From positions 896,001 through 960,000 of the forward strand of contig CBDIIB010000004.1 of NCBI GenBank assembly GCA_965279525.1: a DNA stretch of 64,000 bases. Reading direction: 5' to 3'. Positions 38,032 to 51,526 of the stretch are shown here, piece by piece (within the stretch, counting starts at the first letter, position 1; the number at the start of each line of letters is the position of its first letter). Source of the stretch: Tagaea sp. Its GTDB lineage: Bacteria > Pseudomonadota > Alphaproteobacteria > CACIAM-22H2. The notes under the pieces are model-generated. The model made no database searches, had not been told where the DNA came from, and saw nothing but the letters and a program-made list of their open reading frames with translations. A program made the translations under genes and the position numbers.

Positions 38032-39210
38032 TTACTGTTTGAGAAGGCCGCGCTTGGCCAGGTTTCGATAAAGATGGCTCACGCCGAACATCCACGGCGG
38101 CGCCTTGTCGGACGTCGCGATCCTGTTCGTGAGCGCGCCGAGCTTGGATGCTGAAATCGTCACGATATCGCCGACCTTGTGCGTGAAGCCCTGCCCGGGC
38201 CCCTCGCGGTCCTGCACGGGTGCGAACATCGTGCCGAGAAAGAGAACAAGTCCATCCGGATACTGGTGGCTGGCGCCGATCGCCTGTCCGGCGATGTCCG
38301 CAGGATCGCGGCTGATCAGCTTGAGCGATGACATGCCCTCCATCCGGAAATTGTCTTCGCCTGCGACAACAAGCTCGACATCCATCCGGCGCACGTCGTC
38401 GAGCGTGAAGCTGCCGTCGAAAAGGCGGACGAACGGGCCGATCGCGCAGCTCGCGTTATTGTCCTTCGCCTTGCCAAGAAGCAGTGCCGACCTGCCTTCG
38501 ACATCGCGCAGGTTGACATCGTTGCCGAGTGTCGCGCCAACGATGCGGCCGGAAGACGCGATCACGAGAACGACTTCGGGCTCAGGATTGTTCCAGCGCG
38601 ACACCGGATGGATGCCGGCGGTTGCCCCCGTGCCGACCGACGACATCGGTTGCGACTTCGTGAAAATCTCGGCGTCCGGACCAATGCCGACTTCCAGATA
38701 CTGGCTCCACGCATTCTTGGCGATCAGCCACTCTTTCAGCTTTGCGGCTTCCGCCGAGCCGGGCTTCAGGCGCTGGAGATCGCCGCCGATCAGGTCGAGC
38801 ACTTCCTTGCGCGCGGCGGCGGCAAGTTCCGGTGCCCCGCGCGTGCGTTCTTCGATGACGCGTTCGAGCATCGAGGCGACGAACGTCACGCCGGCAGCCT
38901 TGACGGCCTGAAGGTCGATGGGGGCAATGAACCAGGGTTTTTTCGGATCGCGCTTCGCCTCGTCGCCGTTGGCGAGGAGAGCCTCCACCGTGCCGATCAA
39001 ATCGCCCTTCGCCTTTGCGAGCGCAGTAGCCGGGTCAGCCTGCTCGCACAGGTCGCGAACGGTCGGAAAGATCGCGGTCACGTCGACGACGTCGCCACCT
39101 CGGATCGCGACGACGCTGGGCCCGTCCGCCTCCGGTCGCCATACCCGCCCGACAAGTGTCGCCGTTGCGGAATCCTTCGGAAGTGTTCCTGAAAAATCGA
39201 TCGGTTTCAT
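38032..39210 (-). CDS. Fumarylacetoacetate hydrolase family protein, XylX-like 2-keto-3-deoxy-pentonate dehydratase
   Basis: QAVKAAGVTF, WSQYLEVGIGPDAEIFTK, WNNPEPE, GNDVNLRDVEGRSALLL, GTMFAP. Confidence 0.82.
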   Translation of the reverse strand: MKPIDFSGTLPKDSATATLVGRVWRPEADGPSVVAIRGGDVVDVTAIFPTVRDLCEQADPATALAKAKGDLIGTVEALLANGDEAKRDPKKPWFIAPIDLQAVKAAGVTFVASMLERVIEERTRGAPELAAAARKEVLDLIGGDLQRLKPGSAEAAKLKEWLIAKNAWSQYLEVGIGPDAEIFTKSQPMSSVGTGATAGIHPVSRWNNPEPEVVLVIASSGRIVGATLGNDVNLRDVEGRSALLLGKAKDNNASCAIGPFVRLFDGSFTLDDVRRMDVELVVAGEDNFRMEGMSSLKLISRDPADIAGQAIGASHQYPDGLVLFLGTMFAPVQDREGPGQGFTHKVGDIVTISASKLGALTNRIATSDKAPPWMFGVSHLYRNLAKRGLLKQ

Positions 39211-39419
39211 CCCTCGCGGCCTCACAGTTTTGACAATCCGGTTCCAGGCTGGCGCAGTTGCCCCATACATCGCTTGCGCGCCAATGGCCATCTTCGTGGC
39301 TTTCCCAGCATCGAATATCAGGATTCAAGCTGCATTTCTTCGAAAATCGCATGATTTTCAGTTTACTGGCGCATGCCGACGATAGCGGCAATGCGGCCCG
39401 ACCCAAGACGCAACTCCGC

Positions 39420-42335
39420 CTAGCGGAATCGCTCGATCCGGAAGGGTGTGACGTCGAAATCCGGATCGCGGCCGGCGATCAGCGATGCGGTAAGACGTCC
39501 CACGATCGGGCCCAGCGTATAGCCGTTGGAAGTGACGGCATTGTAGAAGCCGGGGACACCCGGGACTTCACCGACTAGCGGTGCACCGTCCAGATTTACA
39601 TTCATCGCCGCCCATCCGCGCAGGATGTTGTAGCCGTCGAGTGCCGGAACGACGCGTCGGGCAACCCAGAGATTTCCCTCAAGCGAGCCGCGCAGCACGC
39701 GCGGCAGGCCCGTGGCCGGTTCGGCCGCCGCCGTCCAGCCCCCACCGATGACAAAGCCGCCGGTGTCGGCCTGCTTGAGGGTCAAATGGCGGTCGGCATG
39801 TGCGACGAGTTGAGTGACGATCTTGGGACCCGGCGTCGTCACGACGATCTGGAGCGGTGCACCCTTGACCGGCACGTCAATGCCGACCATCCGGCCGATC
39901 CGCGGGCTCCACGGTCCGGCAGCGTTGACGATTCGCCGGCATTCGATATCGCCTCGCCCCGTCCGAACGAGAAACCCGCGCGACTTCCGCTCGATGGCGA
40001 TCACATCGGCGCCACTCCGGAATTGAGCACCATGTGCCTTGGCAAGCCGAACGACGGCATAGGTCGCAATCGCCGGATTGATCTTTCCCTCAAGCGGGCA
40101 ATAGGCCGCACCGACCAGTCGCTCGGAAAGCGCCGGAGCCAGAGACCGAAGTTCATTGCGCCCGATGACCTCGCATTCGACTCCATGGCTTCGCTCGAGA
40201 GCGACCTTCGCGGCAAGAAACGCCATATCTCGGTCGGTCTCGGCAACCATCAGGCCGCCAGTCGTCCGTATTTCCAGATCGATACCGGATGCATCGCCTA
40301 TCGAACGCCATAGCTCAATCGCAGCAGGGCCAAGGGCGAGCGTCTTGGCTGCAGGACCGCCGCCGGCCTGCGCCTTGGCCCCGAAGTCGAAAGAGAGAAG
40401 CTGTACATGCAGGCTTCCGGCATTGGCACCCGAGGCCTGAAGATTCGGCTCGTCGCGCTCGACGACGATCGTCTCGATGCCGGCCTGTGCGAGCGCCAAC
40501 GCGCAAGACGATCCGAGGATGCCACCACCGATAACAAGTGCATCTGTCGAGAGGTCCTCGCAATCAGACGCATGTGCAGACTGCGTGCGCTCGGCGATCG
40601 GCAACGGCGCTTCGACCTCCCGGTGCCCGCCCCATTCCGCTTGCTCGAACGCAAGTGCCGACAAGGGAACGGGCTTCGCCGGCACGCGTGGCGCAAACAG
40701 GTCGAATTCCCCCGGCAGACGCCCGGTCTTGGACTGGACAAACCTTGCGAGGGTTGCCGCACAGTTTCGCCCCTGGCAGCGTCCCATGCCGGCACGTGTC
40801 TGGCGCTTGACGGCGCCGAGCGACTGCTCGCCGTCCTCAAGGCATGTGCGGACGGCACCGGCTGTCACCTCCTCGCACCTGCAGACGATCGCGGAATCGG
40901 GGATCGCGGCCACGTCGAAGGGCGGCTGGCCGTAAATCCGCCATAGCACCTGCTGGAACCGGGTCGCCCCAGCAAGCGACCGGCGCGCACTTTCAATCCC
41001 GCCGATCGGCACGGATTTTCCGAGTGCTTCGCATACGGCAGCGCCTGCCAGAATTCCGCGAGCGATGGCAATTCGCGAACCACCGATGTCCGCACCGTCG
41101 CCGATCACATACACGCCGGGGACATTGGTTGCGCCGCAATCGTCTGTCTGTGCGGCAAGATAGCCGACATGCCGATCGACGAAACGGTGAGCCACACCAA
41201 GCTGCCGGGATATCTCGCTTGATGGGACAAATCCATAACCCATTGCGAGAACGTCGCCCGACAGGAGGCTTCCGTCATCAAGCCTTACTGATCCAAACGT
41301 TCCGACTGCATTCGCATCGATGGCCACGACCCGCCGCCCCCAGAGTACGGGAACGCCGGAAGCCTTCAGCCGTCGAAGCATGGAGACCCCGTCTCGCACC
41401 AGATCCGGCGCCGCCGCGAACAGCCGCAAAGCGTCCGGGAAGCTGCCGATTCCAGGTTGGTCCGCGACCTCGACAACCGCCACGACCTCAGCACCCCCCT
41501 CGATCAACTCGACGGCCGTCTGGATGTTGAGGGGACCGTTCCCTGCCACGATCGTCCGCCTCCCCGGCGCCACGCGATAGCTCCGCGCCAGCGTCTGCGC
41601 GGCACCCGTCGTCATGACCCCGGGGATCGTCCATCCGGGAACCGGAACGGGCCGTTCATAGGCTCCCGCGGCGATCACAACCCGTCGGGCGTTAAAGAGC
41701 ACCGCACGTCCATCCACGATTGCCGCTATCTCATCGACCGCGAATGCGCCCCAGACGACCGCGTCAGAGATGATCTCCACGCCAGCCGTTCGGACATCCA
41801 ACTCGAGTTCGGTGCCGGCGAGAAACTGCTTGTCCGCTCCGCCTTCAGCGAATGCATGCGACGGGCCCAGTGGCTTGAAATACTGCCCGCCCGGATGCGG
41901 GCGCTCGTCGAGCAGGATGACCGAAAGCCCGGCCTTGGCGGCGACCAGGGCGGCATTGAGGCCGGCGGGCCCTGCCCCGACGACGAGCAGATCGACCGCC
42001 CGTGCTTCCGGTGCCTCCGACGGCGGTGGGACAAGCGACTGCGGGTCGGCTGGGGCGTTCGACGATACCTTCATGCCGTCGACGACCTTGACGAGACAGG
42101 CACGCTGCTCCGGCCGGCCATCGACCGTCACGACACATTCGAAGCATGCCCCCATGCCGCACCACAGGCCGCGCGGCGCGCCCGATCTGGCGCTGCGCAG
42201 CGTCAGGATGCCGGCTGCAGTCAACGCTGCTGCGACGGTCTCTCCTTCGATCGCCGGTAAATCACGTTCGTCAAAGCGGAACGCAATGTCACGACCGACG
42301 GGCCGGACCCGTCGACTTGCAAGGCGAAGCTTCAA
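39420..42335 (-). CDS. Three-domain fusion: 2Fe-2S ferredoxin + FAD/NAD oxidoreductase with BFD-like Fe-S + DAO-family flavoprotein (HcnA-HcnB-HcnC / opine oxidase type)
   Basis: CGMGACFEC...RAC; VGAGPAG; VCRCEEV...GMGRCQGRNC; IGGGILG...SGANAG...GYTLGP in one 971-aa frame; TTG start overlaps the upstream stop. Confidence 0.85.
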   Translation of the reverse strand: MKLRLASRRVRPVGRDIAFRFDERDLPAIEGETVAAALTAAGILTLRSARSGAPRGLWCGMGACFECVVTVDGRPEQRACLVKVVDGMKVSSNAPADPQSLVPPPSEAPEARAVDLLVVGAGPAGLNAALVAAKAGLSVILLDERPHPGGQYFKPLGPSHAFAEGGADKQFLAGTELELDVRTAGVEIISDAVVWGAFAVDEIAAIVDGRAVLFNARRVVIAAGAYERPVPVPGWTIPGVMTTGAAQTLARSYRVAPGRRTIVAGNGPLNIQTAVELIEGGAEVVAVVEVADQPGIGSFPDALRLFAAAPDLVRDGVSMLRRLKASGVPVLWGRRVVAIDANAVGTFGSVRLDDGSLLSGDVLAMGYGFVPSSEISRQLGVAHRFVDRHVGYLAAQTDDCGATNVPGVYVIGDGADIGGSRIAIARGILAGAAVCEALGKSVPIGGIESARRSLAGATRFQQVLWRIYGQPPFDVAAIPDSAIVCRCEEVTAGAVRTCLEDGEQSLGAVKRQTRAGMGRCQGRNCAATLARFVQSKTGRLPGEFDLFAPRVPAKPVPLSALAFEQAEWGGHREVEAPLPIAERTQSAHASDCEDLSTDALVIGGGILGSSCALALAQAGIETIVVERDEPNLQASGANAGSLHVQLLSFDFGAKAQAGGGPAAKTLALGPAAIELWRSIGDASGIDLEIRTTGGLMVAETDRDMAFLAAKVALERSHGVECEVIGRNELRSLAPALSERLVGAAYCPLEGKINPAIATYAVVRLAKAHGAQFRSGADVIAIERKSRGFLVRTGRGDIECRRIVNAAGPWSPRIGRMVGIDVPVKGAPLQIVVTTPGPKIVTQLVAHADRHLTLKQADTGGFVIGGGWTAAAEPATGLPRVLRGSLEGNLWVARRVVPALDGYNILRGWAAMNVNLDGAPLVGEVPGVPGFYNAVTSNGYTLGPIVGRLTASLIAGRDPDFDVTPFRIERFR

Positions 42336-43213
42336 AGTCGCGTCCCGTGCCAGCCGGCTTCGCGCTTGCTCCAGTAAAGTTCGTTGAGCTTGCGCGTGAT
42401 CGGTCCTGGAGCTCCACCGCGGACCATGCGGCCGGCGACCTCTCGCACACCGAGTGCCGCCCCGGATGTCGAGCAGGTAAAGACCTCATCGGCGACAAAC
42501 AGGTCGAACGCCGTTATGGCAGCACCCTCCACGGGAATGCGCAGCTCCTCCGCCAGATCGAAAAAGGTCCGACGGGTAATGCCGTGCAATACGCCGAGTG
42601 CGGGCGTCCGCAGCACGCCATCCTTGACGAGAAATACGTTTGAACGGGGCGCTTCCTCGACAAAGCCTTGCGCCGAAAGCCAGACGACATCGTCGAAACC
42701 GGAATCCAGCGCCTCGATCTTCGCGAGCTGATACTGCAGTCGCGCGGTGTGCTTGTATCGCGGGTCGAGCGTATCCGGTGCCATGCCGCGCTGATGGCCG
42801 ATCTGCAGCCGGATACCTTTCTCGCGCTGTTCCGGTGTTCCGAGGTGGGCATAGGGTGTGGCGAACGCCCGAACACTCGGCGTGGCCATCCGGGGATCGG
42901 TATTGCCCTGCTTCAGGAGACCACGCGTGACGATGATCTTGATCGCGGCGTCCTGCAGGTTGTTGCGCCGGGCGGTCTCGCAGACGACGGCACTCCATCT
43001 GTCCCGATCGAGGCCGGTCTCGATCCTTGCAGCATGCAGCGTATCGACGAGCCGGGCGACATGGGCCTCGAGCTGAAAAACGAAACCTTTCCATGCCGAC
43101 ACGACCTCGTAGACTCCATCGCCGAACTGGACGCCCAGGTCGAACGGAGAAAGTCGCGCCTGGCTTTCCGGAACATACGCACCGTCGCAGTAGAGAATGG
43201 GTTCGCTGGACAT
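42332..43213 (-). CDS. Fold-type IV PLP enzyme (D-amino acid/branched-chain aminotransferase or ADC-lyase-like)
   Basis: GDGVYEV, HVARL, catalytic Lys in PRYKH, EEAPRSN, LHGITRR, ADEVF. Confidence 0.85.
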   Translation of the reverse strand: MSSEPILYCDGAYVPESQARLSPFDLGVQFGDGVYEVVSAWKGFVFQLEAHVARLVDTLHAARIETGLDRDRWSAVVCETARRNNLQDAAIKIIVTRGLLKQGNTDPRMATPSVRAFATPYAHLGTPEQREKGIRLQIGHQRGMAPDTLDPRYKHTARLQYQLAKIEALDSGFDDVVWLSAQGFVEEAPRSNVFLVKDGVLRTPALGVLHGITRRTFFDLAEELRIPVEGAAITAFDLFVADEVFTCSTSGAALGVREVAGRMVRGGAPGPITRKLNELYWSKREAGWHGTRL

Positions 43214-43230
43214 CGTTTCCGGTTCCTGTC

Positions 43231-44253
43231 TCAGGCGCCGCCGGTCAGGAAGCGGCGCGGATTGTCGCGCATAAGGGTGTCGATCTCGGCTGCGGTGAAC
43301 CCACGGTCGCGCATCAGCCCGGTGACGTTCGCCGGCAGATGTGCGTAGCCATGGCCGCCGAATGCGCCCAGACGGGTCCGTGTGCAAATGTCGTGCGACA
43401 GCAGCACGCGTCCGCCAAATCCTTCCGCAATGGCCTGCCGCACGTAGCGCAGGCGCATCCAGTCCGTCGGCAGGTCGGCGACCCCGAACCAGTAGTTCGA
43501 AGTCTCGATGCCGAAGAAGTCGAACTCGATCCAGCATCCGCGCGCCGCCAGGGCCGCTATTGAAGGAAAATCGAAATACGTCCGATCGACATGGCTTATC
43601 GCCACGCGCGCCGGGTCGGCCCCCGACCTTTCAAGAATGTCGAGGATCTCGTGCGGCGCGTCCGGATGGCGTCCCGGATGCACGTTGATCGACAGTCCGG
43701 TCCGGCGTTGTGCGATCGCAGAGGCCTCAAGTGACCGGCGCTCGAAATCGGCCAGCGGCCAACTGCAGCCGACCTCGCCGATCAGGCCGGCACGGATACC
43801 GGTTGCGAGAAAGCCCTCGCTTGCCTGGAGTTCGATCCGGTCGGCGAGCCACGCCACATCCCGCGACCGCGTGCCGGAATCGACGAAGTCTGCCGTGTAG
43901 AACCCGGCGCCGGCGACGATCGCCACGCCGGTCTTGCGCGACAGTTCCACAAGCCCGGCCGGATCCGGTCCGATTCCATCGGTCGTCAATTCGAAGATCG
44001 TGTTGCCGCCGGCCGAAGCGAAAGCGTGCAATTCGCCTTCCGCCACATCGCGCTGGGACAGTCGATGGTTGCCCTTGAATGCCGTCGGCCGGTAGGCGAT
44101 CGCGTGGGTATTCCCAAGGGTAATCTCGACGTCGCGAATTGCCGGGTCGCGAAGCGCAAGTGGCGTGACATCGCAAAGCACATGTTCGTGCGGAAGCACG
44201 AGGCCGAGCCGTGAAGCCGGCATTTCCCCGAGAACGGTCATTACCTTGGTCAT
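43231..44253 (-). CDS. Phosphotriesterase-related (PTER/Php) amidohydrolase
   Basis: PHEH, IGEVGCSWPL, HPGR, SHVDRT, EFDFFG, SHDI, GGHGY, NP. Confidence 0.88.
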   Translation of the reverse strand: MTKVMTVLGEMPASRLGLVLPHEHVLCDVTPLALRDPAIRDVEITLGNTHAIAYRPTAFKGNHRLSQRDVAEGELHAFASAGGNTIFELTTDGIGPDPAGLVELSRKTGVAIVAGAGFYTADFVDSGTRSRDVAWLADRIELQASEGFLATGIRAGLIGEVGCSWPLADFERRSLEASAIAQRRTGLSINVHPGRHPDAPHEILDILERSGADPARVAISHVDRTYFDFPSIAALAARGCWIEFDFFGIETSNYWFGVADLPTDWMRLRYVRQAIAEGFGGRVLLSHDICTRTRLGAFGGHGYAHLPANVTGLMRDRGFTAAEIDTLMRDNPRRFLTGGA

Positions 44254-44339
44254 GCCGCCTCGGGCCCGAATCCTGCACTTGCGAAGTGTCGCCTGTTGAC
44301 GACAGTATCCTCCCGAATGTCATACAACTGGCTTGGAAA

Positions 44340-45224
44340 ATGGCGAAGAAATTCCGCGGCACATTTACGGTCCTGATCACGCCTTTCAGCGATGACGGCC
44401 GGACAGTCGATCTCAAGGCGTTGACCGACCTCGTCAATTGGCAGATCGAGCAGGGCATTCACGGGCTTATCCCGCTTGGCTCGACGGGCGAGTTCCTGTC
44501 GCTGACGGATGCCGAAGCCGAAGCCGTCGCCGAGACGACAATCAAGGCGGCTGCCGGGCGCGTGCCGGTGCTGATCGGTACGGGTGCCGAGTTTACGGAC
44601 GAGTCGATCCGCCTTTCCCGGCGCGCCGAGAAACTGGGCGCGGACGGCGTGATGATCATCCCGCCCTTCTATTCGACTCCGACCGACGACGAGCTGTTCG
44701 TTCACTACCGGCGTATCGGCGAGGCCATCGGCATCCCGATCATGATCTACAACAATCCTGCGACGGCGAATGTCGACATGCGACCACCGACGGTCCAGCG
44801 GCTCAGCCAGATCGACAATGTCCGCTACATCAAGGAATCGACGCTCGAAGTGACGCGGGTCCGCGACATCATCGAGCTGTGCGGCGACCGGATGACGGTT
44901 TTCGCCGGAATCCTCGGATACGAGTCGTTCTGGCTCGGGGCACAAGGCTGGGTCGCCGTCTGCTCGAACCTGATGCCGAAGGAATCCGCGCGACTTTTCG
45001 AGCTTGTCGCCGATGCGAAAGACCAGCCGGCGGCACTCGCCGCCTACCGCCGCATGCTCCCGATCGTCCGTTGGGTCGGCGGGCAACGCTACGTCTCGGC
45101 CACAAAAGCCGGGTTCGCCATGATGGGGCGCCCGGTCGGGCCGCCACGCCCGCCCCGCCTGCCGCTGCCGGCCGAAGATGCCGCCGTCCTGCGGAAGGAC
45201 CTCGCCTCGCTCGGCCTTGTCTGA
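44340..45224 (+). CDS. DapA-family class I aldolase/lyase
   Basis: ITPF, GSTGE, IYNNP, YIKES. Confidence 0.88.
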   Translation: MAKKFRGTFTVLITPFSDDGRTVDLKALTDLVNWQIEQGIHGLIPLGSTGEFLSLTDAEAEAVAETTIKAAAGRVPVLIGTGAEFTDESIRLSRRAEKLGADGVMIIPPFYSTPTDDELFVHYRRIGEAIGIPIMIYNNPATANVDMRPPTVQRLSQIDNVRYIKESTLEVTRVRDIIELCGDRMTVFAGILGYESFWLGAQGWVAVCSNLMPKESARLFELVADAKDQPAALAAYRRMLPIVRWVGGQRYVSATKAGFAMMGRPVGPPRPPRLPLPAEDAAVLRKDLASLGLV

Positions 45225-45237
45225 TCCGTTCCCCGGA

Positions 45238-46131
45238 TCAGCCGGCGGATTGGCCGAGATACCAATCGAGAATCTCCTCGCCCGTCCACATGACGACGTC
45301 CTTGTGGCCGAGAATGTGATCGTAGAGCTTTTCAAGATAGCCGATGCGGTGCGGAACGCCAGTCAGGTAGGGATGGATCGAGATCGCCATCACGCGCGGG
45401 ATGCTCGCACCCTCCAGATAGAGCCGGTCGAACTGGTCTCGTCCCCTGCGGAAAATCTCGTCGGACGGCTGATGCTGCAGTGCCGACATCATCACGTCGT
45501 TGATCTCGACCGTATAGGGGATCGACGTGATCTTGCCCGTGCGGGTGCGCATCGCGACGGGCTGGTCGTCCAGCACCCAATCGGCGACGTACTCGATCCC
45601 CGCTTCGGCGAGGAGGTCGAGGGTCTCGTCCGTCTCCGTCAGCCCAGGACTTTCCCAGCCGCGCGGCGGCCTGCCGGTGAACGCGCGGATTGCGGCGATC
45701 GTATCGGCAATGGCTCCTCGCTGGTCTTCGACCTTGTGCATGGGTTTTTGCACGAACCCGTGCCCCATGAATTCCCAGCCGGCACGCAGGGCCGCGGCAC
45801 AGGCTTTTTCGTAGACGCGGCAGGCCGAGCCATTGACCGCCATCGTCGCCTTTAGACCACGCGCCGACAGAACATCCAGAAAGCGCCAGAATCCGACCCG
45901 CATTCCGTACTCGTGCCACGACCAGTTCGGAACGTCGGGTAGCAGTGTCTGGCCCATCGGCGGCGGAACCACCGTCCGCGGCATCGGTGCCGTCGGACTC
46001 CAGTTCTCGACATTGACGATCGTCCAGACGGCGACCCGTGCGCCGCCCGGCAGCACAAGCTTCGGACGTTCCGTTATCGGCGAATAGCCGACACGGCCGG
46101 CGACAGTGGACCCAATCTGGAATTCGGTCAT
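45238..46131 (-). CDS. Polysaccharide deacetylase family protein (PuuE-like)
   Basis: NVENW, WSWHEYGMRVG, FMGHG, DDQP, SIHPYLTG. Confidence 0.85.
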   Translation of the reverse strand: MTEFQIGSTVAGRVGYSPITERPKLVLPGGARVAVWTIVNVENWSPTAPMPRTVVPPPMGQTLLPDVPNWSWHEYGMRVGFWRFLDVLSARGLKATMAVNGSACRVYEKACAAALRAGWEFMGHGFVQKPMHKVEDQRGAIADTIAAIRAFTGRPPRGWESPGLTETDETLDLLAEAGIEYVADWVLDDQPVAMRTRTGKITSIPYTVEINDVMMSALQHQPSDEIFRRGRDQFDRLYLEGASIPRVMAISIHPYLTGVPHRIGYLEKLYDHILGHKDVVMWTGEEILDWYLGQSAG

Positions 46132-46156
46132 CGTTGCGCCTTCCCGGCGAAAGGCG

Positions 46157-46187
46157 GGCGGCGCGGCGTATCAGGCGCCGCGCCGCC
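46157..46187 (-). terminator. Hairpin 3' of the binding-protein gene
   Basis: GGCGGCGCGGCG / CGCCGCGCCGCC 12-bp stem. Confidence 0.55.
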
Positions 46188-46193
46188 GCCAGC

Positions 46194-47075
46194 TCATGCC
46201 GGCCCGGGCCCCTTGATGCCGAACTGCGTCATGGTGAGCTTCAGGACGCCATATTTGTCCATCAGCGCGTCGTAGAACCCGTCCTTCTTCATGTCGGTCA
46301 GAACGCCGGCGACGGTCTCGGCGAGCGGCTTGCTCGTGAACGCAAGGCAGGCCTCCTGCGCGAAAAGCCCGCTGACCGCACGCGTGAAGTCGCCCCGGGT
46401 CTGCATGAACATCGCCGTCGCGTCGGCGGCGGTCGTTCCTTCGACCTGGCCGGCGCGCAGGGCCTGGAACGCCTCGGAGAAGTTGTTGAACGAACGGACC
46501 TCGATCGCCTTCAGGCCCTTGGCGACGAGCATGTCGGACAGTTCCTTCGTGCGCCGCTCCTCGATCGAACCCTGCTCGCACGAGATGCGCTTGCCTGCGA
46601 AATCGTCGACCGTCTTGATGTTCTGAGGATTGCCGCGCTGCACGAGGATGCTGAGCGCGACGCCTTCGTAGGGCACCATGTACATAATTTTCGAGCGCTC
46701 TTCGGTCCAGAAGATGCCGGTATTGATCATGTCCCAGCGCTTCGCGGCCAGGCCCGGTATCATCGTCGTCACGCCATCGATGCGGAAATACTCGGGAACC
46801 AGGCCAAGACGCTTGGCCGTCTCGTTGCCGAGTTCGGCACGCAGACCCTGGATCTCGCCCTTGTCGTTGATGAACTGCAGCGGCGGCAGCGTCGGATTGA
46901 TCGACATCATGAGCGTACCCGCCTTGATGATGACGGGCGGAGCCACCTTCGCCTGCGCACGTGCGGCACGCGGGATCTGGGTGGCGGCGACAGCCGCACC
47001 GGCGCTGGCAAGGAGCCAGCGACGGGTCAGCCCGTTGCCGTTCGCGATTGTGCGGGCGGGGCGTTTGCTGGTCAT
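46194..47075 (-). CDS. Polar amino acid ABC substrate-binding protein (family 3, Tat-exported)
   Basis: TRRWLL leader; NPTLPP, IPGLAAKRWD, TEER; start after GGGAG. Confidence 0.85.
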   Translation of the reverse strand: MTSKRPARTIANGNGLTRRWLLASAGAAVAATQIPRAARAQAKVAPPVIIKAGTLMMSINPTLPPLQFINDKGEIQGLRAELGNETAKRLGLVPEYFRIDGVTTMIPGLAAKRWDMINTGIFWTEERSKIMYMVPYEGVALSILVQRGNPQNIKTVDDFAGKRISCEQGSIEERRTKELSDMLVAKGLKAIEVRSFNNFSEAFQALRAGQVEGTTAADATAMFMQTRGDFTRAVSGLFAQEACLAFTSKPLAETVAGVLTDMKKDGFYDALMDKYGVLKLTMTQFGIKGPGPA

Positions 47076-47132
47076 CTTGTGTCTCCCGTTGAAGTGATAG
47101 TCGGCGTGACGGACGCCGGCCGAGCGGAATTG

Positions 47133-47149
47133 AGCAAGTTTGGTGCCAG
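47133..47149 (-). promoter_or_regulatory. Sigma-54 (-24/-12) promoter
   Basis: Minus strand reads CTGGCACCAAACTTGCT = TGGCAC-N5-TTGC, 58 bp upstream of the binding-protein ATG. Confidence 0.8.
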
Positions 47150-47151
47150 CC

Positions 47152-48087
47152 CTAGGAGGCGCTTTTCTGGAGAAGCCCACCTGCGGCCAGGATGCCCCGG
47201 AGGGCATCCAAAGCCGCGGCATCGTCGATGGGCAACAACGGCGGCCGCGTCCAGCCGCCGGGCTGCCCCAGCATGTTCATCGCCGCCTTGATCTGCGACT
47301 GCGGAGAGCCAAATCGGCCACTCCAGTCCGGGTTGATCAGTTGCCCCATGATCGCGGCATAAGTCTCGGCGTGGGCAAGGGCGGCCTTCGTGTCGCCGCG
47401 CCAATGCGCCTCGTAGAAGGACACCGCGTACTGACCGGCAACGGCACCGCCGTCGATGGATCCGTCACCGCCCATCGTCCGCAAAAGCGCGTAGCCCAGG
47501 CGGTTCGCGAAGCCTCCGAATACCCGCAGCTTGTCGCCGACCTCTTCCAGGGTGCGGATTGCCTGCAGGCGGTTCGTCGTGCTGTCCTTCAGTGCCACCA
47601 CGCGATCGATGCGCGCCAGTTCCGCCGCCGTTTCCCACGTGATCTCGACCTGCGTGCCGCGCGCCCAGTTGTAAACCATCAGCGGCAGGTCAACCGCTTC
47701 GCAAACGGTGCGGAAAAAGGCGACGATCTCGCGCGAGGTCGGTGCCGCATAGGGCGGCGGCGTCGACAGCACGCCGTCGGCACCAAGGCTGCGGGCGTGA
47801 AGTGCCAATTCGATCGTCTGCCGGGCGGTATAGGTCGTGCAGCCGATCACGACCGGAATCTTGCCCTTCAGTTCCTCGACGGCGATCTCGGCAACGCGCT
47901 TGCGCTCTGCGTCGGACTGGGAAAACCACTCTCCGGTCGTGCCGTTGACCAGCACGCCATGCACGCCCATCTTCAGATAGTGGCGAAGCCCCGCCCGCCA
48001 GGCCGCCTCGTCTACCGCGCCATCGCGGGTGAAAGGCGTGGGTGCAGCGACCCAATAGCCCTTCCAGTCGACGTCATTGCGGTCCAT
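47152..48087 (-). CDS. DapA-family class I aldolase/lyase
   Basis: PTPF, NGTTGE, VYNW, ALKDS. Confidence 0.88.
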   Translation of the reverse strand: MDRNDVDWKGYWVAAPTPFTRDGAVDEAAWRAGLRHYLKMGVHGVLVNGTTGEWFSQSDAERKRVAEIAVEELKGKIPVVIGCTTYTARQTIELALHARSLGADGVLSTPPPYAAPTSREIVAFFRTVCEAVDLPLMVYNWARGTQVEITWETAAELARIDRVVALKDSTTNRLQAIRTLEEVGDKLRVFGGFANRLGYALLRTMGGDGSIDGGAVAGQYAVSFYEAHWRGDTKAALAHAETYAAIMGQLINPDWSGRFGSPQSQIKAAMNMLGQPGGWTRPPLLPIDDAAALDALRGILAAGGLLQKSAS

Positions 48088-48138
48088 CTCCGGAACTCCG
48101 ATCGCTGGCCGAATTCGTTGAATGTATTGAGTAGGTAA

Positions 48139-48984
48139 CTATTGTAGGCCGTCGCCCGGGAAATCAAGGGTCGCCTGGTAGCCATTTCCGCTCAAGTTTG
48201 AGGCCCGACGTGCCGCTGCCTCGCGCTGTGCAGCCAATGCAGCGGCATCCATGTCTGACGTAGGACGCGGTTCCGGATCGAAATGTCCGAACGCATCGTG
48301 GCCGCGCACAAGCATTGCCGATTCCCGCCCCCGGAGCTGCCGCACATGGGTCGGAACGAAGCGTGCAGCGATGCCGATCCGCGATTGGGTCCATCGGTTC
48401 GGCGCCGACGAATGCAGCGCCCGCGTATGGTGGAAAACAGCCTCTCCGGCACTAAGAACGGCTTCGATAGCCCGGCCTTCGTCGACACCACGGGCAATCT
48501 GCCCGCTATGGAGCAGATTGTCCGGATGCGGTCGAAGATCGATGGGATAGCGTTCCGCCGAATGGCTGCCGGGAATATACCGGACCGGCCCGCTTTCGGA
48601 GGGCACGTCGCTGAGCGCGATCCAGGCCGTAACCTCCGTCGGCGGATCGAGGTGCCAGTACGTGTCGTCCTGGTGCCATGAAATATATTTACCCGTGCCG
48701 GCCGGCTTATCGAAGAGCTCCGTCGACCAAAGCAGGAAGTCCGGCCCGATGATGTCCTCAACTGCATCAAGCAGTCGTGCGTCATGTACCAAGGCGTCCA
48801 CCCAGGTCAGCAGAAGGTGGATCTTCTGCGTACGGCTGCCGGTAAAGGATCCGAATTTTGCCTGACTTGAAAAGTAGCAGCCCCGATACCGCTCGGCTTC
48901 TGTCGTATCGAGAACTCGTACGGGAAAAAGGAACCCGTCCGCTTGGTATCGCGCAAGCTCGGCAGGCGTCAGCTTCCTGTGCAC
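48139..48984 (-). CDS. PhyH-family Fe(II)/2-oxoglutarate dioxygenase
   Basis: WHQD (HxD), TAWIAL, IPGSH, LHSSAPN...R; GTG start. Confidence 0.88.
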   Translation of the reverse strand: MHRKLTPAELARYQADGFLFPVRVLDTTEAERYRGCYFSSQAKFGSFTGSRTQKIHLLLTWVDALVHDARLLDAVEDIIGPDFLLWSTELFDKPAGTGKYISWHQDDTYWHLDPPTEVTAWIALSDVPSESGPVRYIPGSHSAERYPIDLRPHPDNLLHSGQIARGVDEGRAIEAVLSAGEAVFHHTRALHSSAPNRWTQSRIGIAARFVPTHVRQLRGRESAMLVRGHDAFGHFDPEPRPTSDMDAAALAAQREAAARRASNLSGNGYQATLDFPGDGLQ

Positions 48985-48996
48985 GGGCCAATTCCC

Positions 48997-49803
48997 TTAA
49001 AGTCGGATCGAAGCGGCACGATGTCGCAGCGGACCGAGCGCCGACCAGGCCGTGTAGTCGGCGCAGTCCTCGATCGGGTCCGGATCGGTACCATCGATGA
49101 ACAGTCGGCAGTGTCCCGGCGTTGCCCAGATTTCCAGCTCATGTCGGGTCACCTGGCCGACGGGATCGGCGAACAGCTCGACCTCCGTGCGCTCGAAACC
49201 CAGACCGGCAAGCGCGATGCCGACGGAAAGGTTCAGGTTGCGCGGAAAATGGCGGGACAGATCGCGCACCGATCCGCGCAGGATCATCGTTTCTCGTTCA
49301 ATCTTGTCGAGATCGACGAGCGATGCCGCAGCGTTCGCACGCCAAACCCGGAGCGGTTTCGCCGTCCTGTAGACGATCCGGGAAAGGCCGGAATCACGTG
49401 CCGCAGCGACCAGATCAAGCGTACCGATCGCGCCCGGAGCGATGAAGACCTTTCCCGAGCCTGGCTGCCCGCTCGCATGCCGCAGCCGCTCAAGGACCTT
49501 CTCGTCCAGCAGGGCGCAAAGCGAGAGCGGGACAAGGTCGATTCCGCGAGCGACGATCTGATGGCCATACTCGGCCAGCGCTTCGGGACTCGCACATTCA
49601 AGGACGATTTCGGGCCGCCGGTCGAAAAACTCGGACAGCAAGGCCGTCGAACGAAACGGTCCGCCGTTGCGGGTCAGGACCGCGACGAGTTCGGCGTCCG
49701 GGCCGAGATTGGCTGCGACGCGCGCGCCGATCTTGCCCCAGCCCACGATCCCGACGCGGGTCGGCCGGACAGCACAACCGGCACCGGCGTCAACGATCGT
49801 CAC
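48997..49803 (-). CDS. L-aspartate dehydrogenase-like (NadX/DUF108) NAD-binding protein, divergent
   Basis: GWGKIG, ECAS, GAIG.LD, FPRNLN, ADP...RHE; start uncertain (GTG 49803). Confidence 0.75.
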   Translation of the reverse strand: MTIVDAGAGCAVRPTRVGIVGWGKIGARVAANLGPDAELVAVLTRNGGPFRSTALLSEFFDRRPEIVLECASPEALAEYGHQIVARGIDLVPLSLCALLDEKVLERLRHASGQPGSGKVFIAPGAIGTLDLVAAARDSGLSRIVYRTAKPLRVWRANAAASLVDLDKIERETMILRGSVRDLSRHFPRNLNLSVGIALAGLGFERTEVELFADPVGQVTRHELEIWATPGHCRLFIDGTDPDPIEDCADYTAWSALGPLRHRAASIRL

Positions 49804-50500
49804 GCGCCAACTGCTTGGTTTCGACGTTGCCAAGCGGCTTGGCATAGTGGGCCTCGATACGGCGTTGGACAAAGTCCCAACAGGTCGTCATCGCGAGATA
49901 GATGATCGCCACCACGAGGAACACCTCGAGCACGTCGAAGCGCTGCTGCATGAGGCTCTGGCCGCGCCGCATCAGCTCTTCCATCGAGATCACCGACGCG
50001 ATCGAAGTGGTCTTGAGCAGTCCGTTCACCGAGTTGCCCAGCGGCGGGATGATGACGCGCAGTGCCTGCGGCATGACGACGAGCCAGAAAATCTGGAAGC
50101 CGCTGAGTCCAAGGGAACGGGCCGCTTCGGTCTGGCCTTTCGGAACGGCAAGAATGCCGGCGCGCAGGATCTCGGAAAGGTAGGCTGCCTCATTGAGCGC
50201 AAGACCGATAAGCGCCGACTGGATGACCGACAGTCGGATTCCGAACTGCGGCAACCCGGTATAGATGATGACCAACTGCACGAGCAGCGGCGTGCCGCGG
50301 AAAATCCAGACATAGCCGTGCGACACCATCTGCAGTGTCTTGTATTTCGACATCCGCAGGACGGCGATGAACAGGCCCAAAATGAGGCCGAAAAACAGGG
50401 TGATGACGGTGAGCGCAAGGGTCCAGAGCGCCCCCTCGAGCAGGTATAGGTTGGTGAAATAATTGAAGAATCCGGCCCAGTCGAACTTCATTTTCTCCAT
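49790..50500 (-). CDS. Polar amino acid ABC permease (HisM/GlnP type)
   Basis: FRGTPLLVQL, AYLSEILRAG, GQTEAARSLG, PPLGN, KTTS. Confidence 0.92.
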   Translation of the reverse strand: MEKMKFDWAGFFNYFTNLYLLEGALWTLALTVITLFFGLILGLFIAVLRMSKYKTLQMVSHGYVWIFRGTPLLVQLVIIYTGLPQFGIRLSVIQSALIGLALNEAAYLSEILRAGILAVPKGQTEAARSLGLSGFQIFWLVVMPQALRVIIPPLGNSVNGLLKTTSIASVISMEELMRRGQSLMQQRFDVLEVFLVVAIIYLAMTTCWDFVQRRIEAHYAKPLGNVETKQLARDDR

Positions 50501-50572
50501 CCCCTCGCACGCGGCAGCGCTTCAGTCTGCAAGTTTCGTGCGATAGGGGATGTTGTAGCCCGAAATCGGCGG

Positions 50573-50636: not shown

Positions 50637-51467
50637 TCAAGGCCGCAAAGGCGCCTTCCAGTTTTTCAGGCTGCTGAAATCGGCCGTGTACTCGGCCGAA
50701 GCGAACGTTCCGCCCTGATAGAAATCTCCGACGGGTTCGGCGGCGATCGCCGCCTGTCCTGCCTTGGCTGCTGCTAGCTGCCCTTCCGAGTCGTGTTTGG
50801 GACTGTAACCAAGTTCGTGCGCACGCCGGTTGTCCCACCAGGCGCGCTTGTTGGCGGACGCGCCATAGAGCACCTCGAAGACGATGTCGGGATGGTCGAG
50901 ACCGATCCGGATCAACTGAACGAGATCCTCGGGATGCAGCATGATCGCCATCCGGCGCATGTCGAGCGGCGTCTCGTTCACATTGCCGATGCGAAGGCAT
51001 GTCACGCGGAGGCCGTGCTTCATCGCGTACATCGCGCCAAGCGCTTCGCCGAATGCCTTGGAAACGCCGTACCGGCTGTCGGGGAGGACCGTCACGTCAT
51101 GCGGAATCTTCGTCGTGCGCGGATAGTATCCGACCGCATGGTTCGACGAGGCGAAGATCACCCGCTTCACGCCCGCCGCACGCGCGGTCTCGAACAGGTT
51201 GTAGCAGCCGACGATATTGGCATTGAGGATCGACTCCCAGGGCCCCTCGACCGAATAGCCGCCCAAATGCACGATACCGTCTATTCCGGCGACCGCCGCG
51301 GCCGTCTCCGACACGCTGGCAAGATCCGCCTTGACGAATTGCAGCCCGTGCAGATCCGCAGGTGCCTTCAGGTCCGACAGGACGAGTTCGGGATAGGCAG
51401 CCTTCAACATCGGCGTGATGCGCCGCCCGACATCGCCCGCAGCTCCGGTCAGCAGAACTCTTTTCAT
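50637..51467 (-). CDS. udh: Uronate dehydrogenase-like NAD-dependent SDR
   Basis: LTGAAG.VG, HLGG.SVE..W, FASSNHAVGYY, PDSRYGVSKAFGE, LRIG, WWDN. Confidence 0.75.
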   Translation of the reverse strand: MKRVLLTGAAGDVGRRITPMLKAAYPELVLSDLKAPADLHGLQFVKADLASVSETAAAVAGIDGIVHLGGYSVEGPWESILNANIVGCYNLFETARAAGVKRVIFASSNHAVGYYPRTTKIPHDVTVLPDSRYGVSKAFGEALGAMYAMKHGLRVTCLRIGNVNETPLDMRRMAIMLHPEDLVQLIRIGLDHPDIVFEVLYGASANKRAWWDNRRAHELGYSPKHDSEGQLAAAKAGQAAIAAEPVGDFYQGGTFASAEYTADFSSLKNWKAPLRP

Positions 51468-51526
51468 CGATTCTCTCTCTTCCGATCTGAAACGCACGGC
51501 CACCAGGCCGGATTTCCGCATGCGGC

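Follow-up and report, generated by a model that had tools for sequence, protein, structure and literature searches.

In the known hydroxyproline pathway, D-hydroxyproline dehydrogenase is followed by a DapA-family deaminase. The three-subunit form of this dehydrogenase and the opine dehydrogenases are described as homologous alpha/beta/gamma enzymes (PMC4575208). Here we present a gene cluster of Tagaea sp. in which a fused enzyme of this type is encoded beside a DapA-family protein. In our view there is an even chance that the cluster represents a widespread operon for the catabolism of a polar non-proteinogenic amino acid, of which the window (the whole stretch of 64,000 nucleotides analysed) carries a lineage-specific, enlarged version. 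A literature search found no published description of the cluster, consistent with the first-pass annotation, which had not recognised it as a described pathway. Families were assigned by Pfam and NCBIfam profile searches of the window proteins (E-values in the list are from Pfam), and the locus comprises the following features:

49790..50500, minus strand: polar amino acid ABC permease, one copy (BPD_transp_1, 1.6e-26); core
48997..49872, minus strand: NadX-like NAD(P) dehydrogenase (Asp_DH_C, 6.1e-15; NAD_binding_3, 3.2e-9); accessory
48139..48984, minus strand: PhyH-family Fe(II)/2-oxoglutarate hydroxylase (PhyH, 2.6e-28); accessory
47152..48087, minus strand: DapA2, second DapA-family lyase (DHDPS, 3.5e-49); accessory
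47133..47148, minus strand: sigma-54 -24/-12 element, perfect match (TGGCACcaaacTTGCT), before the binding-protein gene
46194..47078, minus strand: family-3 periplasmic solute-binding protein with Tat-like signal (SBP_bac_3, 7.2e-22); core
45238..46131, minus strand: PuuE-like amidohydrolase of polysaccharide-deacetylase fold (Polysacc_deac_1, 9.7e-11); accessory
44340..45224, plus strand: DapA1, DapA-family Schiff-base lyase (DHDPS, 1.3e-63); core
43231..44253, minus strand: PTER-like binuclear-metal amidohydrolase (PTE, 1e-62); accessory
42332..43216, minus strand: class IV (D-amino acid/branched-chain type) PLP aminotransferase (Aminotran_4, 4.3e-46); accessory
39420..42335, minus strand: fused gamma-alpha-beta flavin/iron-sulfur dehydrogenase of D-hydroxyproline/opine/HCN-synthase type (Pfam); core
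38032..39291, minus strand: FAH-like protein (structure-database match 9kkt); likely neighbouring module
36567..38015, minus strand: aldehyde dehydrogenase (Aldedh, 5.9e-164)

All gene families claimed by the first-pass annotation were found by Pfam and NCBIfam, roughly where it had placed them; its observations needed correction in the strand of DapA1 and the position of a sigma-54 site. No enzyme reached the NCBIfam cut-off of its eponymous function (NadX, 160.5 against 177; PuuE, 119.5 against 424.6; alpha-ketoglutaric semialdehyde (KGSA) dehydrogenase, 538, with 538.4 for the GucD model, against 770; DapA (TIGR00674), 197 against 206). The minus-strand genes are tightly spaced, from overlaps up to 73 nt, and the real start of the NadX-like gene is probably near 49770.

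The binding protein, the single permease, DapA1 and the ~970-aa fused oxidoreductase form a four-gene core that was found together in all 17 other loci examined (10 anchored on the PTER-like protein, 1 on the oxidoreductase (G110) and 6 plasmid or chromid loci on DapA1). Permease homologues (57-99% identical) lie beside DapA1 and the oxidoreductase in each of the 17 loci, which also encode binding-protein homologues of 45-93% identity. Judged by this conservation, the core arrangement is more than chance, and its conserved heart is an enzyme of HcnABC/D-hydroxyproline-dehydrogenase type paired with one of the DapA family, a combination to which the first-pass annotation had drawn attention. 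Carriers range over soil, plant-associated and aquatic Alpha- and Betaproteobacteria (Tagaea, Stappia, Martelella, Azospirillum, Agrobacterium vitis, Aureimonas, Rhizobium and Variovorax); the core lies on the pAt plasmid of A. vitis and on Rhizobium chromids or plasmids, one of these in an aerial-tumour isolate. Elsewhere the core is usually accompanied by a GntR/FCD regulator pair, an ATPase and DUF3830 (the last in most lineages), all of which are missing from the window cluster; a GntR near it shows no more than 25-28% identity to the GntRs that accompany the core.

The accessory genes are distributed very differently from the core. The full 11-kb set is kept in one close relative only (L001; PTER-like protein 93% identical). 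PhyH, DapA2, the PuuE-like and FAH-like proteins and the aldehyde dehydrogenase are shared by the window with L001 alone, being present in 1 of 10 PTER-anchored loci and 0 of 7 other core loci, and the class IV aminotransferase is confined to Tagaea-type loci (L001-L006; 6 of the 10 PTER-anchored). Every locus with a PTER-like homologue of 56% identity or more has the core beside it (10/10), whereas at 48% or below the core was missing from all 18 loci first examined. The NadX-like gene, also accessory, follows the PTER-like gene in its distribution: it is present in the same 10 loci and was not found in four dihydropyrimidinase-type loci, two minimal loci or the G110 locus. The hydrolases flanking the core are interchangeable between lineages, the same place being taken by PTER-like plus M20 enzymes, a dihydropyrimidinase or a PuuE-like enzyme; sets range from PTER-like plus M20 plus NadX-like, through dihydropyrimidinase or M20 alone, to none (dihydropyrimidinase in 4, PTER-like in 3, M20 in 4 and no hydrolase in 2 of 10 loci compared).

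The 11-kb cluster is thus not the single unit first proposed but a composite, with five accessory genes limited to the window and L001; co-occurrence elsewhere, on which the proposal had been staked, holds for the core but not for most accessory genes. A stronger version of this view, which we consider distinctly unlikely, is that no single pathway joins the genes and that functionally separate modules merely adjoin: the core, a pentonate/uronate module (the FAH-like and aldehyde dehydrogenase genes, together with the SDR, GntR and TRAP genes at the opposite flank) and unrelated inserts (NadX-like, PhyH, DapA2 and PuuE-like). Besides the restricted distribution, it would account for the gene order, which is rearranged relative to other Tagaea loci, with the genes for binding protein and permease inverted and separated from each other, and for the PhyH family being large and multi-copy (match in 58 of 401 genomes; 3 copies in this genome). 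However, the inserts separate the permease gene from the binding-protein gene of the same transporter, and neighbouring genes overlap or lie no more than 73 nt apart; the inserts are therefore almost certainly co-transcribed with that transporter, as judged from gene layout. PhyH homologues of 57-61% identity directly precede a binding-protein homologue in three metagenome contigs. Moreover, a distant locus, G166 (L074), repeats the combination of PTER-like, PuuE-like and DapA-like proteins with a class III aminotransferase, an alpha plus beta flavin dehydrogenase and an ABC transporter (28-46% identity to the window counterparts; 35% for the PuuE-like protein), which softens the negative result for the accessory genes.

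A further argument for separate modules lies at the downstream end. The FAH-like protein matches 9kkt, an "FAH family protein" (5.3e-132), and 2-keto-3-deoxy-D-arabinonate dehydratase 2q18 (1.9e-17), and is probably a 2-keto-3-deoxy-pentonate-type dehydratase; its gene likely belongs to a neighbouring module outside the pathway. The aldehyde dehydrogenase, closest to KGSA dehydrogenase, looks like its partner in a pentonate-pathway pair and may be shared with other pathways. The KGSA-dehydrogenase-like gene previously reported at this end is present, but its pairing with the FAH-like dehydratase would alone explain its presence.

The fused oxidoreductase has the domain order gamma-alpha-beta on a single chain (Pfam: Fer2_4, 15-93; Pyr_redox_2, 115-415; SO_alpha_A3/BFD, 483-562; DAO, 598-952), and its closest solved relatives are both subunits of Pyrococcus horikoshii L-proline dehydrogenase (1y56 A and B). 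Homologues number 2430 at E<=1e-100; the 120 matches listed are of 953-1021 aa with 97-100% query coverage, and some of these are named "D-hydroxyproline dehydrogenase subunit alpha" by JGI. This label, the enzyme families in matching order of action and the KGSA-dehydrogenase-like gene downstream would all suit hydroxyproline catabolism. We nevertheless regard that assignment as very improbable: the same genome carries a separate canonical trio (DHDPS-family, DAO and Pro_racemase) at C4:165989-169331, and DapA1 is only 25.7% identical to the DHDPS-family protein of that trio. The aldehyde dehydrogenase is missing from 16 of 17 core loci. A proline-racemase-family epimerase, already noted as absent, was indeed not found in the window cluster by Pfam, nor did the annotated or scanned genes of the core loci read include one.

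Both DapA-like lyases reported earlier are present (33.8% identical to each other), but DapA2 is restricted to the window and L001, and DapA1 is encoded on the plus strand, where it is transcribed away from the PTER-like gene, while it and the PuuE-like gene run towards each other; a minus-strand ORF overlapping it (44250-45335) has no Pfam family match. DapA1 is 29.1% identical to Escherichia coli DapA. It keeps Lys161, Tyr133 and Tyr107, whereas Arg138 is replaced by Thr in 6 of 6 clade members aligned. Its best solved relative is PA0223 of Pseudomonas aeruginosa (3na8; 1.8e-53), a DapA paralogue without DHDPS activity, in which Thr44 and Arg138 are variable positions (PMC3281039). Because of the retained residues, the Thr at position 138 and the inactivity of PA0223 as a DHDPS, DapA1 is assigned as a DapA-family Schiff-base lyase and not a true DapA.

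The dehydrogenase family also invites an opine-type reading, in which the fused enzyme would be a flavin opine dehydrogenase that releases a 2-oxo acid and an amino acid from an N-(carboxyalkyl) amino acid. Lactams formed by such iminodiacids would be opened by the hydrolases, and the two products would serve as substrates for DapA1, the aminotransferase and the NadX-like enzyme. OdhABC, Nox and Oox are members of this alpha/beta/gamma family and are encoded next to ABC transporters (PMC8087989, PMC4575208). The plasmid-borne loci of A. vitis and Rhizobium and the aerial-tumour strain point the same way, and a dihydropyrimidinase or PTER-like enzyme could serve as lactamase. Yet DapA1 is the most constant partner of the dehydrogenase (17/17 loci), and we know of no role for a DapA-family enzyme in described opine catabolism. 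Among the matches listed, the core is equally common in Variovorax and Azospirillum; it also occurs in Tagaea, Stappia and Martelella, aquatic or marine taxa that have, to our knowledge, no tumour-derived opine source. Arginase, ornithine cyclodeaminase and opine synthase genes were seen in none of the loci read, and overall we hold an opine route to be unlikely.

Of the accessory enzymes, the PTER-like protein matches PDB 9efa, a "phosphotriesterase-related protein" (3.9e-78, residues 3-337). Its closest characterised relative, PTER, hydrolyses N-acetyltaurine (PMC11374699, PMC12873775) and controls N-acetyl-beta-alanine (PMC13311154), and the PTER substrates given in these three sources are small N-acetyl amino compounds. 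The PuuE-like protein matches PuuE allantoinase 3cl6 (6.2e-24). Both hydrolases fit the earlier idea of deacylation or ring opening as an unmasking of N-acyl or cyclic forms.

The PhyH protein carries a WHQD iron motif with H-x-D intact, from which it follows that it is a hydroxylase; the intact motif rules out a halogenase. Its predicted model (pLDDT 94) is closest in fold to ThoJ (6zyl; Z 33.4, rmsd 1.9 over 250 aligned residues, 37% identity), followed by SyrB2, proline hydroxylase H11 and GriE (Z 23-25) and EctD (~21). Of 19 loci with PhyH homologues of 43-50% identity, none has a NadX-like or DapA2-like gene as a neighbour of PhyH. Fe/2OG hydroxylation had been proposed as a step of the route; since PhyH is restricted to the window and L001, it is at most a lineage-specific side entry and no core step.

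PTER and PhyH together raise the thought of a sulfonated or beta-amino compound (N-acetyltaurine, a tauropine-like opine, a cysteate derivative or N-acetyl-beta-alanine), deacetylated by the PTER-like enzyme, with PhyH acting like taurine dioxygenase. The known PTER substrates agree with this, the nearest named NCBIfam models of permease and binding protein are cystine-transporter components, and a TauE/SafE sulfite-exporter-family gene follows the PhyH (57-61%) and binding-protein homologues in two metagenome contigs. But the transporter scores fall far under the cut-offs, none of the loci examined has a TauE-family gene in or beside the core, and the sole TauE homologue of this genome (C5:657880-658575) is far from any related locus. 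As accessory genes, those for the PTER-like enzyme and PhyH say little about the core substrate, and such a compound is improbable.

For the permease, the best named NCBIfam model is cystine permease (208.5 bits; cut-off 300). The binding protein has no close solved relative (best, the designed ancestor AncQR, 7.5e-27); its N-terminus (MTSKRPARTIANGNGLTRRWLL...) contains a Tat-like TRRWLL motif, as expected from the earlier call of a Tat-type protein. No ABC ATPase lies within the cluster, and the nearest homologues in this genome of the cluster-linked Martelella ATPase are elsewhere on contig C4. The element TGGCACcaaacTTGCT is the sole perfect sigma-54 -24/-12 match in the window (1 observed against 0.04 expected; at least one match in 4 of 100 shuffles) and occupies part of the 73-nt gap upstream of the binding-protein gene; its position is conserved in L001 only. 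It does not precede the permease gene, where the site (50528-50543) is imperfect, with CG in place of the GG in the searched consensus. Outside the window, the genome encodes rpoN as well as four strong enhancer-binding proteins; the site itself has no enhancer-binding protein gene nearby. The promoter suggests nitrogen-regulated expression.

Our preferred reading remains catabolism of a non-standard amino or imino compound, a part of the earlier interpretation that is supported; the interpretation as a whole is so only in part. From the genes, their families, order and conservation, all observed, we infer a mechanism in which optional unmasking of N-acyl or cyclic forms precedes flavin oxidation of the alpha C-N bond and DapA-type cleavage or deamination, a scheme on which we are evenly divided. 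The most likely candidates for the substrate are D- or cyclic imino acids and gamma-hydroxylated (di)amino acids. The Tat-exported binding protein and single permease would import the compound with an ATPase borrowed from elsewhere in the genome. An accessory metal amidohydrolase (PTER-like and PuuE-like here; an M20 ArgE/DapE-type deacylase or dihydropyrimidinase in other lineages) would then free the amino acid from an N-acylated or cyclic-amide form. The fused [2Fe-2S]/FMN/FAD dehydrogenase would oxidise the alpha C-N bond to a 2-imino/2-oxo acid or cyclic delta-1 imine, passing electrons to the respiratory chain. DapA1, forming a Schiff base via its conserved lysine, could either produce an aldehyde acid from a 4-hydroxy cyclic imine by deamination and dehydration, or cleave a 4-hydroxy-2-oxo acid to pyruvate and an aldehyde, and an aldehyde dehydrogenase would complete the route. 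Side entries for related compounds may be provided in this lineage by the class IV aminotransferase, NadX-like dehydrogenase, PhyH hydroxylase and DapA2; an unhydroxylated congener, for example, could be hydroxylated and then enter at the dehydrogenase.

The OdhABC, NoxAB and OoxAB clusters are not known to contain a DapA-family partner. They share with the present locus the dehydrogenase family and its cofactor domains, an adjoining polar amino acid-type ABC transporter and plasmid carriage in rhizobia and agrobacteria, but their subunits are separate, whereas the chain is fused here, and they are partnered by arginase, ornithine cyclodeaminase or the like, which are absent here (PMC4575208). 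PA0223 (PDB 3NA8), the closest solved relative of DapA1, is known only as lacking DHDPS activity (PMC3281039). With eukaryotic PTER, an N-acetyltaurine/N-acetyl-beta-alanine amidohydrolase, the window protein shares the phosphotriesterase-family fold, as in the strong 9efa match, but it is bacterial and lies within an amino acid catabolic operon. The known hydroxyproline pathway likewise couples an alpha/beta/gamma flavin/iron-sulfur dehydrogenase to a DapA-family Schiff-base enzyme, with a family-3 ABC transporter in the cluster, an aldehyde dehydrogenase downstream (in this window) and a GntR/FCD regulator pair (in other core loci but not the window). Here, by contrast, the three subunits are fused into a ~970-aa chain without an epimerase, DapA1 belongs to a different clade (25.7% identical to the trio member of its own genome), the core has variable amidohydrolases and, in most lineages, DUF3830, and the canonical trio is already encoded elsewhere in this genome.

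The window (contig C4, 896001–960000) belongs to a 4.35-Mb genome of 66% GC in five contigs; the genomes closest to it in the collection carry the label Tagaea sp. Each of the gene families named in the first-pass annotation, which had proposed a cluster of about 11 kb (39420–50500) for the catabolism of an amino or imino compound, was found by Pfam and NCBIfam scans. Reading down from 50500, the cluster is composed of the following genes:

Minus strand, first gene: single amino acid ABC permease.
Minus strand, after the permease: NadX-like dehydrogenase.
Minus strand, after the NadX-like gene: PhyH dioxygenase.
Minus strand, after PhyH: DapA2, a DapA-family protein.
46194–47078, minus strand (start 47078), after DapA2: family-3 binding protein.
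Minus strand, after the binding protein: PuuE-like deacetylase.
Plus strand (true start 44340), converging on the PuuE-like gene: DapA1.
Minus strand, beyond DapA1: PTER-like amidohydrolase.
Minus strand (true start 43216): class IV PLP enzyme.
39420–42335, minus strand: fused oxidoreductase of 971 residues (Fer2_4, Pyr_redox_2, SO_alpha_A3/BFD and DAO).
Minus strand, after the fused oxidoreductase: FAH-family protein.
Minus strand, after the FAH-family protein and last of the cluster: aldehyde dehydrogenase.

None of the cluster enzymes reached the curated NCBIfam cut-off for the function behind its nickname, so these names are family labels only. Family scans found no ABC ATPase within the cluster. 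GC content is 0.60–0.66 in the cluster against 0.654–0.670 for the contigs, and the GC profile displayed no clear island there. Among sequencing runs, no RNA run is listed for 41000–50500. Beside the cluster, at 50637–55356, are an SDR/epimerase-family dehydrogenase with weak similarity to Azf glucose-6-phosphate dehydrogenase, a GntR/FCD regulator and, oriented divergently, a TRAP transporter (DctPQM). Judged by these genes, the stretch is probably a module for sugar-acid uptake, apart from the catabolic cluster.

The binding protein carries a Tat-like TRRWLL motif at its N terminus. The only perfect TGGCAC-N5-TTGCW match in the window (1 against 0.04 expected from shuffling) lies at 47133–47148, in the gap between the DapA2 and binding-protein genes and 55 nt before the binding-protein start at 47078. 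This site has the GG-N10-GC core, is upstream of a gene start and occurs in a genome with rpoN (contig C5, 1786857–1787336). The sigma-54 promoter proposed earlier would thus stand before the binding-protein gene but not before the permease gene, where the site reads CG instead of the GG of the consensus searched. Outside the window, the perfect site is kept only in the nearest relative (locus L001). The four strong Sigma54_activat matches of the genome are all on contig C3, with none in the window, and the simplest candidate activator would be a general nitrogen regulator. A generic promoter and terminator scan returned fewer sites than in shuffled sequence.

The PTER-like query retrieved 11 genome loci, 10 of them at 56% identity or more, from Tagaea, Stappia, Martelella and a metagenome-assembled genome labelled Asaia. 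The binding protein, permease, DapA1, fused oxidoreductase and NadX-like dehydrogenase were detected by tblastn in all ten, and the class IV enzyme in six. The expectation that the gene set recurs elsewhere therefore held for a four-gene core (binding protein, permease, DapA1 and fused oxidoreductase) but not for PhyH, DapA2, the PuuE-like and FAH-like proteins or the aldehyde dehydrogenase, which among these ten loci were confined to L001 (PTER-like proteins 93% identical). Of 400 further genomes in the class, 22 encode weaker PTER-like homologues (33–48% identity); these were rejected as evidence on the cluster, about which they are uninformative, because DapA1 and the fused oxidoreductase were absent within roughly 10 kb on either side in 18 loci with homologues at or below 48% identity. 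The Asaia-labelled locus (L006, contig CAMDLT010000021.1, Asaia bogorensis) is syntenic with the Tagaea loci and encodes proteins 60–84% identical to those of the window; its label or binning looks doubtful.

The core was also reached from its other genes. A full-length, single-ORF fused oxidoreductase was found in one of the 400 genomes of the class (G110), at a locus that also encodes the rest of the core, an ATPase, an M20 deacylase, DUF3830 and a GntR protein. In the plasmid collection, DapA1 matched at least 14 records at about 59% identity or more. Six of them were examined (Azospirillum sp. TSH58, Agrobacterium vitis pAt, Aureimonas pAU20b, Variovorax sp. PDNC026, Rhizobium tropici CIAT 899 and R. 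rhododendri), and in each one DapA1 has the genes for the fused oxidoreductase, permease and binding protein as neighbours. All 17 loci examined outside the window thus have the four-gene core; as each set of loci was retrieved with a gene of the cluster itself as anchor, only the non-anchor genes count as independent observations. Among 8,000 candidates scored, 2,430 database clusters are related to the fused oxidoreductase at E ≤ 1e-100, with numerous entries from Variovorax and Azospirillum and others from rhizobial chromids. The 120 matches listed are 953–1,021 residues long and bear generic or automatic names only, such as 'D-hydroxyproline dehydrogenase subunit alpha'.

Side-by-side comparison of ten core loci revealed a variable periphery. 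Nine of the ten have an ABC ATPase next to the core, and DUF3830 is present in eight. The hydrolases vary: a dihydropyrimidinase in four (Azospirillum, A. vitis, Aureimonas and Variovorax), an M20 ArgE/DapE-type deacylase in four, a PTER-like gene in three, and none at all in two, both Rhizobium. From these presence counts, the predicted minimal functional unit is the transporter, fused oxidoreductase and DapA1, usually with DUF3830, and the hydrolases resemble front ends that a lineage may add or leave out. Three features have been lost in the window lineage: the ATPase, DUF3830 and the GntR regulator pair (the GntR protein neighbouring the cluster is only 25–28% identical to the core-associated ones). 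The lineage has gained a NadX-like–PhyH–DapA2 block, which separates the permease gene from that of the binding protein, and a PuuE-like gene after the latter; gene order is rearranged relative to the other Tagaea loci. A distant analogous locus (G166, 28–46% identity) repeats the functional set with a PTER-like protein, an ABC transporter, a flavin dehydrogenase whose alpha and beta subunits have their own genes, a class III aminotransferase and DapA-like and PuuE-like proteins, which speaks for a genuine part of the PuuE-like enzyme and an aminotransferase in systems of this kind.

Related arrangements were observed around several of these components. In three distinct contexts, DUF3830 (PF12903) recurs next to genes for Oox/HcnB-like flavin dehydrogenases and ABC transporters of amino acids, and it may work together with enzymes of this family. 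Loci with it include L007, L010, L072, L079–L081, L085 and L086; R. rhododendri has a second copy (L086, 6297–6698 and 14797–15204), and the window's own genome encodes DUF3830 at a separate locus (C5, 336310–343918). In L075 and L077 (genomes G097 and G079), the beta (DAO) part has a gene of its own beside a gamma–alpha fusion, and a DapA1-like gene (43–44% identity) and an ABC transporter are clustered with them; these loci are another variant of the core. Such split relatives, in G097, G242 and G079, occur with OYE-family and SDR genes. DapA1 relatives at 51–58% identity in Thioclava and on a Comamonadaceae plasmid were set aside: they lack the fused oxidoreductase, are grouped with genes for acyl-CoA dehydrogenase, CoA-transferase and MaoC, and represent a different pathway variant. 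Elsewhere in the window's genome (C5, 676091–678809), the binding protein and permease have paralogues (50% and 59% identity, respectively), which likewise come without an ATPase and adjoin an AstE/AspA-family deacylase and a D-2-hydroxyacid dehydrogenase; 6 kb beyond lies an M20 deacylase 61% identical to the core-linked M20 protein of Tagaea.

The fused oxidoreductase comprises all three parts of the alpha/beta/gamma flavin dehydrogenases, the reference family that includes D-hydroxyproline dehydrogenase (LhpBEF), opine dehydrogenase (OdhABC), HCN synthase (HcnABC) and archaeal L-proline dehydrogenase. The gamma part is a [2Fe-2S] ferredoxin-like Fer2_4 domain (residues 15–93, 2.1e-25), the alpha part consists of Pyr_redox_2 (115–415, 1.3e-33), SO_alpha_A3 (484–562) and Fer2_BFD (483–530), and the beta part is the catalytic FAD domain DAO (598–952, 2.6e-65). 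Its closest solved relatives are both subunits of the Pyrococcus L-proline dehydrogenase, with the alpha part matching 1y56_A and the beta part 1y56_B (2e-24). With an opine dehydrogenase in the same family, a route of opine type comes into consideration for the cluster; we judge it rather unlikely.

DapA1 and DapA2 score 197.0 and 143.1 bits against the true-DapA model TIGR00674, below its cut-off of 206.15. DapA1 and five aligned orthologues retain Lys161, the Schiff-base residue, together with Tyr133 and Tyr107 (E. coli numbering). In DapA1 and all five, Thr takes the place of Arg138, the residue of true DapA that binds aspartate semialdehyde (NPATANVD against VPSRTGCD in E. coli). This is a variable active-site position, and PA0223, the nearest solved relative of DapA1, lacks DHDPS activity (PMC3281039). 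The RefSeq name of the Azospirillum orthologues, dapA (4-hydroxy-tetrahydrodipicolinate synthase; TSH58 plasmid, L079, 12175–13068, and three further plasmid matches), is therefore probably wrong, and 'dapA' on this clade would be a recurrent misannotation of a lysine-biosynthesis gene. DapA1 is 29.1% identical to E. coli DapA and 33.8% to DapA2. A 36%-identical match on a Sinorhizobium meliloti plasmid was considered as hypD and rejected, its neighbours being ASA dehydrogenase, an ATP-grasp protein and pyridoxal kinase.

Among the accessory enzymes, the PTER-like protein has the binuclear-metal fold of the phosphotriesterase family (PTE, 1e-62; PDB 9efa, 3.9e-78 over residues 3–337). PTER is reported to hydrolyse N-acetyltaurine (PMC11374699, PMC12873775) and to control N-acetyl-beta-alanine (PMC13311154), and reported sulfonate contacts in sponge PTER are His206, Arg209, Arg238 and Tyr268 (PMC12873775). 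A route for a sulfonate or beta-amino compound is nonetheless very improbable for the window cluster. The PuuE-like protein falls below the PuuE allantoinase cut-off (TIGR03212, 119.5 against 424.6 bits) and matches 3cl6 distantly (6.2e-24). The NadX-like protein likewise falls below the NadX cut-offs (NF009828, its best, 160.5 against 177 bits; TIGR03855, 114.2 against 206.55). For the aldehyde dehydrogenase, the best model is alpha-ketoglutaric semialdehyde dehydrogenase (NF042993), at 538.4 bits, below the equivalog cut-off of 770. The FAH-like protein matches 9kkt (5.3e-132) and a 2-keto-3-deoxy-arabinonate dehydratase (1.9e-17). Sugar-transport and sugar-oxidoreductase genes adjoin the flank that these two enzymes form, and on homology the pair resembles the two final steps in a non-phosphorylative pentonate route. 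That the cluster as a whole is a composite of separate modules is, in our estimate, distinctly unlikely.

The PhyH protein carries the H-x-D/E iron motif (WHQD, residues 103–106), with His104 and Asp106 invariant in all 34 aligned homologues. PhyH-family halogenases have Ala or Gly instead of the acidic residue of the facial triad. By motif, the protein is a predicted Fe(II)/2OG hydroxylase rather than a halogenase. Its predicted model (pLDDT 94) is nearest in fold to ThoJ (Z 33.4; structure entry titled 'non-heme monooxygenase ThoJ'), which we take to be the histidine beta-hydroxylase of thioholgamide biosynthesis, followed by the amino acid hydroxylases proline hydroxylase H11, GriE and EctD (Z 21–23). 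No NadX-like or DapA2-like neighbour was found within 1.5 kb on either side in any of 19 loci with PhyH homologues of 43–50% identity. Two metagenome contigs (L108, 848–3432; L109, 7677–10541) encode a PhyH homologue (57–61%), then a binding-protein homologue (45–46%) and a TauE/SafE-family exporter, which could form a small organosulfonate-handling module; the TauE lead was dropped for the core, beside which no locus examined has a TauE-family gene. Two more PhyH paralogues (41–42% identity) lie on C4, 18–35 kb past the end of the window, at 977774–978526 and 994266–995069, the latter match with one in-frame TGA.

A five-step route could account for the cluster, and we consider its chances to be even. 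The binding protein and permease would import the substrate, the accessory amidohydrolases would optionally deacylate it or open its ring, and the fused dehydrogenase would oxidize the alpha C–N bond. DapA1 would then catalyse deamination or retro-aldol cleavage via a Schiff base, and the aldehyde product would be oxidized. Because this chemistry needs a 4-hydroxy-2-oxo acid or its cyclic imine, our guesses at the substrate are hydroxylated cyclic imino acids and gamma-hydroxylated amino or diamino acids, D-forms included. More broadly, and with somewhat less than even confidence, we propose that the core operon constitutes an undescribed, widespread pathway for a D-, imino or gamma-hydroxy (di)amino acid. 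It would combine a family-3 ABC transporter, a single-chain gamma–alpha–beta dehydrogenase, a non-DHDPS DapA clade and, in most lineages, DUF3830 as a new enzyme or accessory subunit, with lineage-specific PTER-like, M20, dihydropyrimidinase or PuuE-like amidohydrolases for unmasking; the PTER-like protein would then have the first physiological role of a bacterial PTER.

The earlier claim that this combination is not a described pathway agrees with the literature searched on the gene set, opine and D-hydroxyproline dehydrogenases and PTER (subscription journals mostly outside), where no description was found. That literature yielded no papers on DUF3830, 6ZYK, 6ZYL or 9KKT/9KKV, and nothing relevant to the cluster on 9EFA and PTER; among the 30 best of 125 matching papers on hydroxyproline dehydrogenase or pyrroline-4-hydroxy-2-carboxylate, no title or abstract pointed to the fused enzyme or the cluster. 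Identification of the substrate would give a function to the operon family, DUF3830 and the bacterial PTER homologues, and would bring to light a nutrient that is exchanged in the rhizosphere and in aquatic habitats. The cluster is well conserved and experimentally approachable, and since tractable organisms carry the core, the question is directly testable.

The only Pro_racemase match of the genome (C4, 166004–166921) lies outside the window beside DAO and DHDPS-family genes, and these three genes, on one strand at 165989–169331, make up what by homology is a complete canonical hydroxyproline trio; close by are genes for a GntR-like protein and an ANTAR response regulator. With this trio elsewhere in the genome, and with DapA1 only 25.7% identical to its DHDPS-family protein, plain hydroxyproline catabolism is hardly credible for the window cluster, which is not the canonical pathway. 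The canonical L-hydroxyproline cluster includes its epimerase, whereas the family scan bore out the earlier remark that the window cluster has no proline-racemase-family epimerase. The D-hydroxyproline and opine dehydrogenases characterized in bacteria are reported to be three-subunit enzymes with FAD, FMN and [2Fe-2S] (PMC4575208), whereas the window enzyme is a single 971-residue chain.
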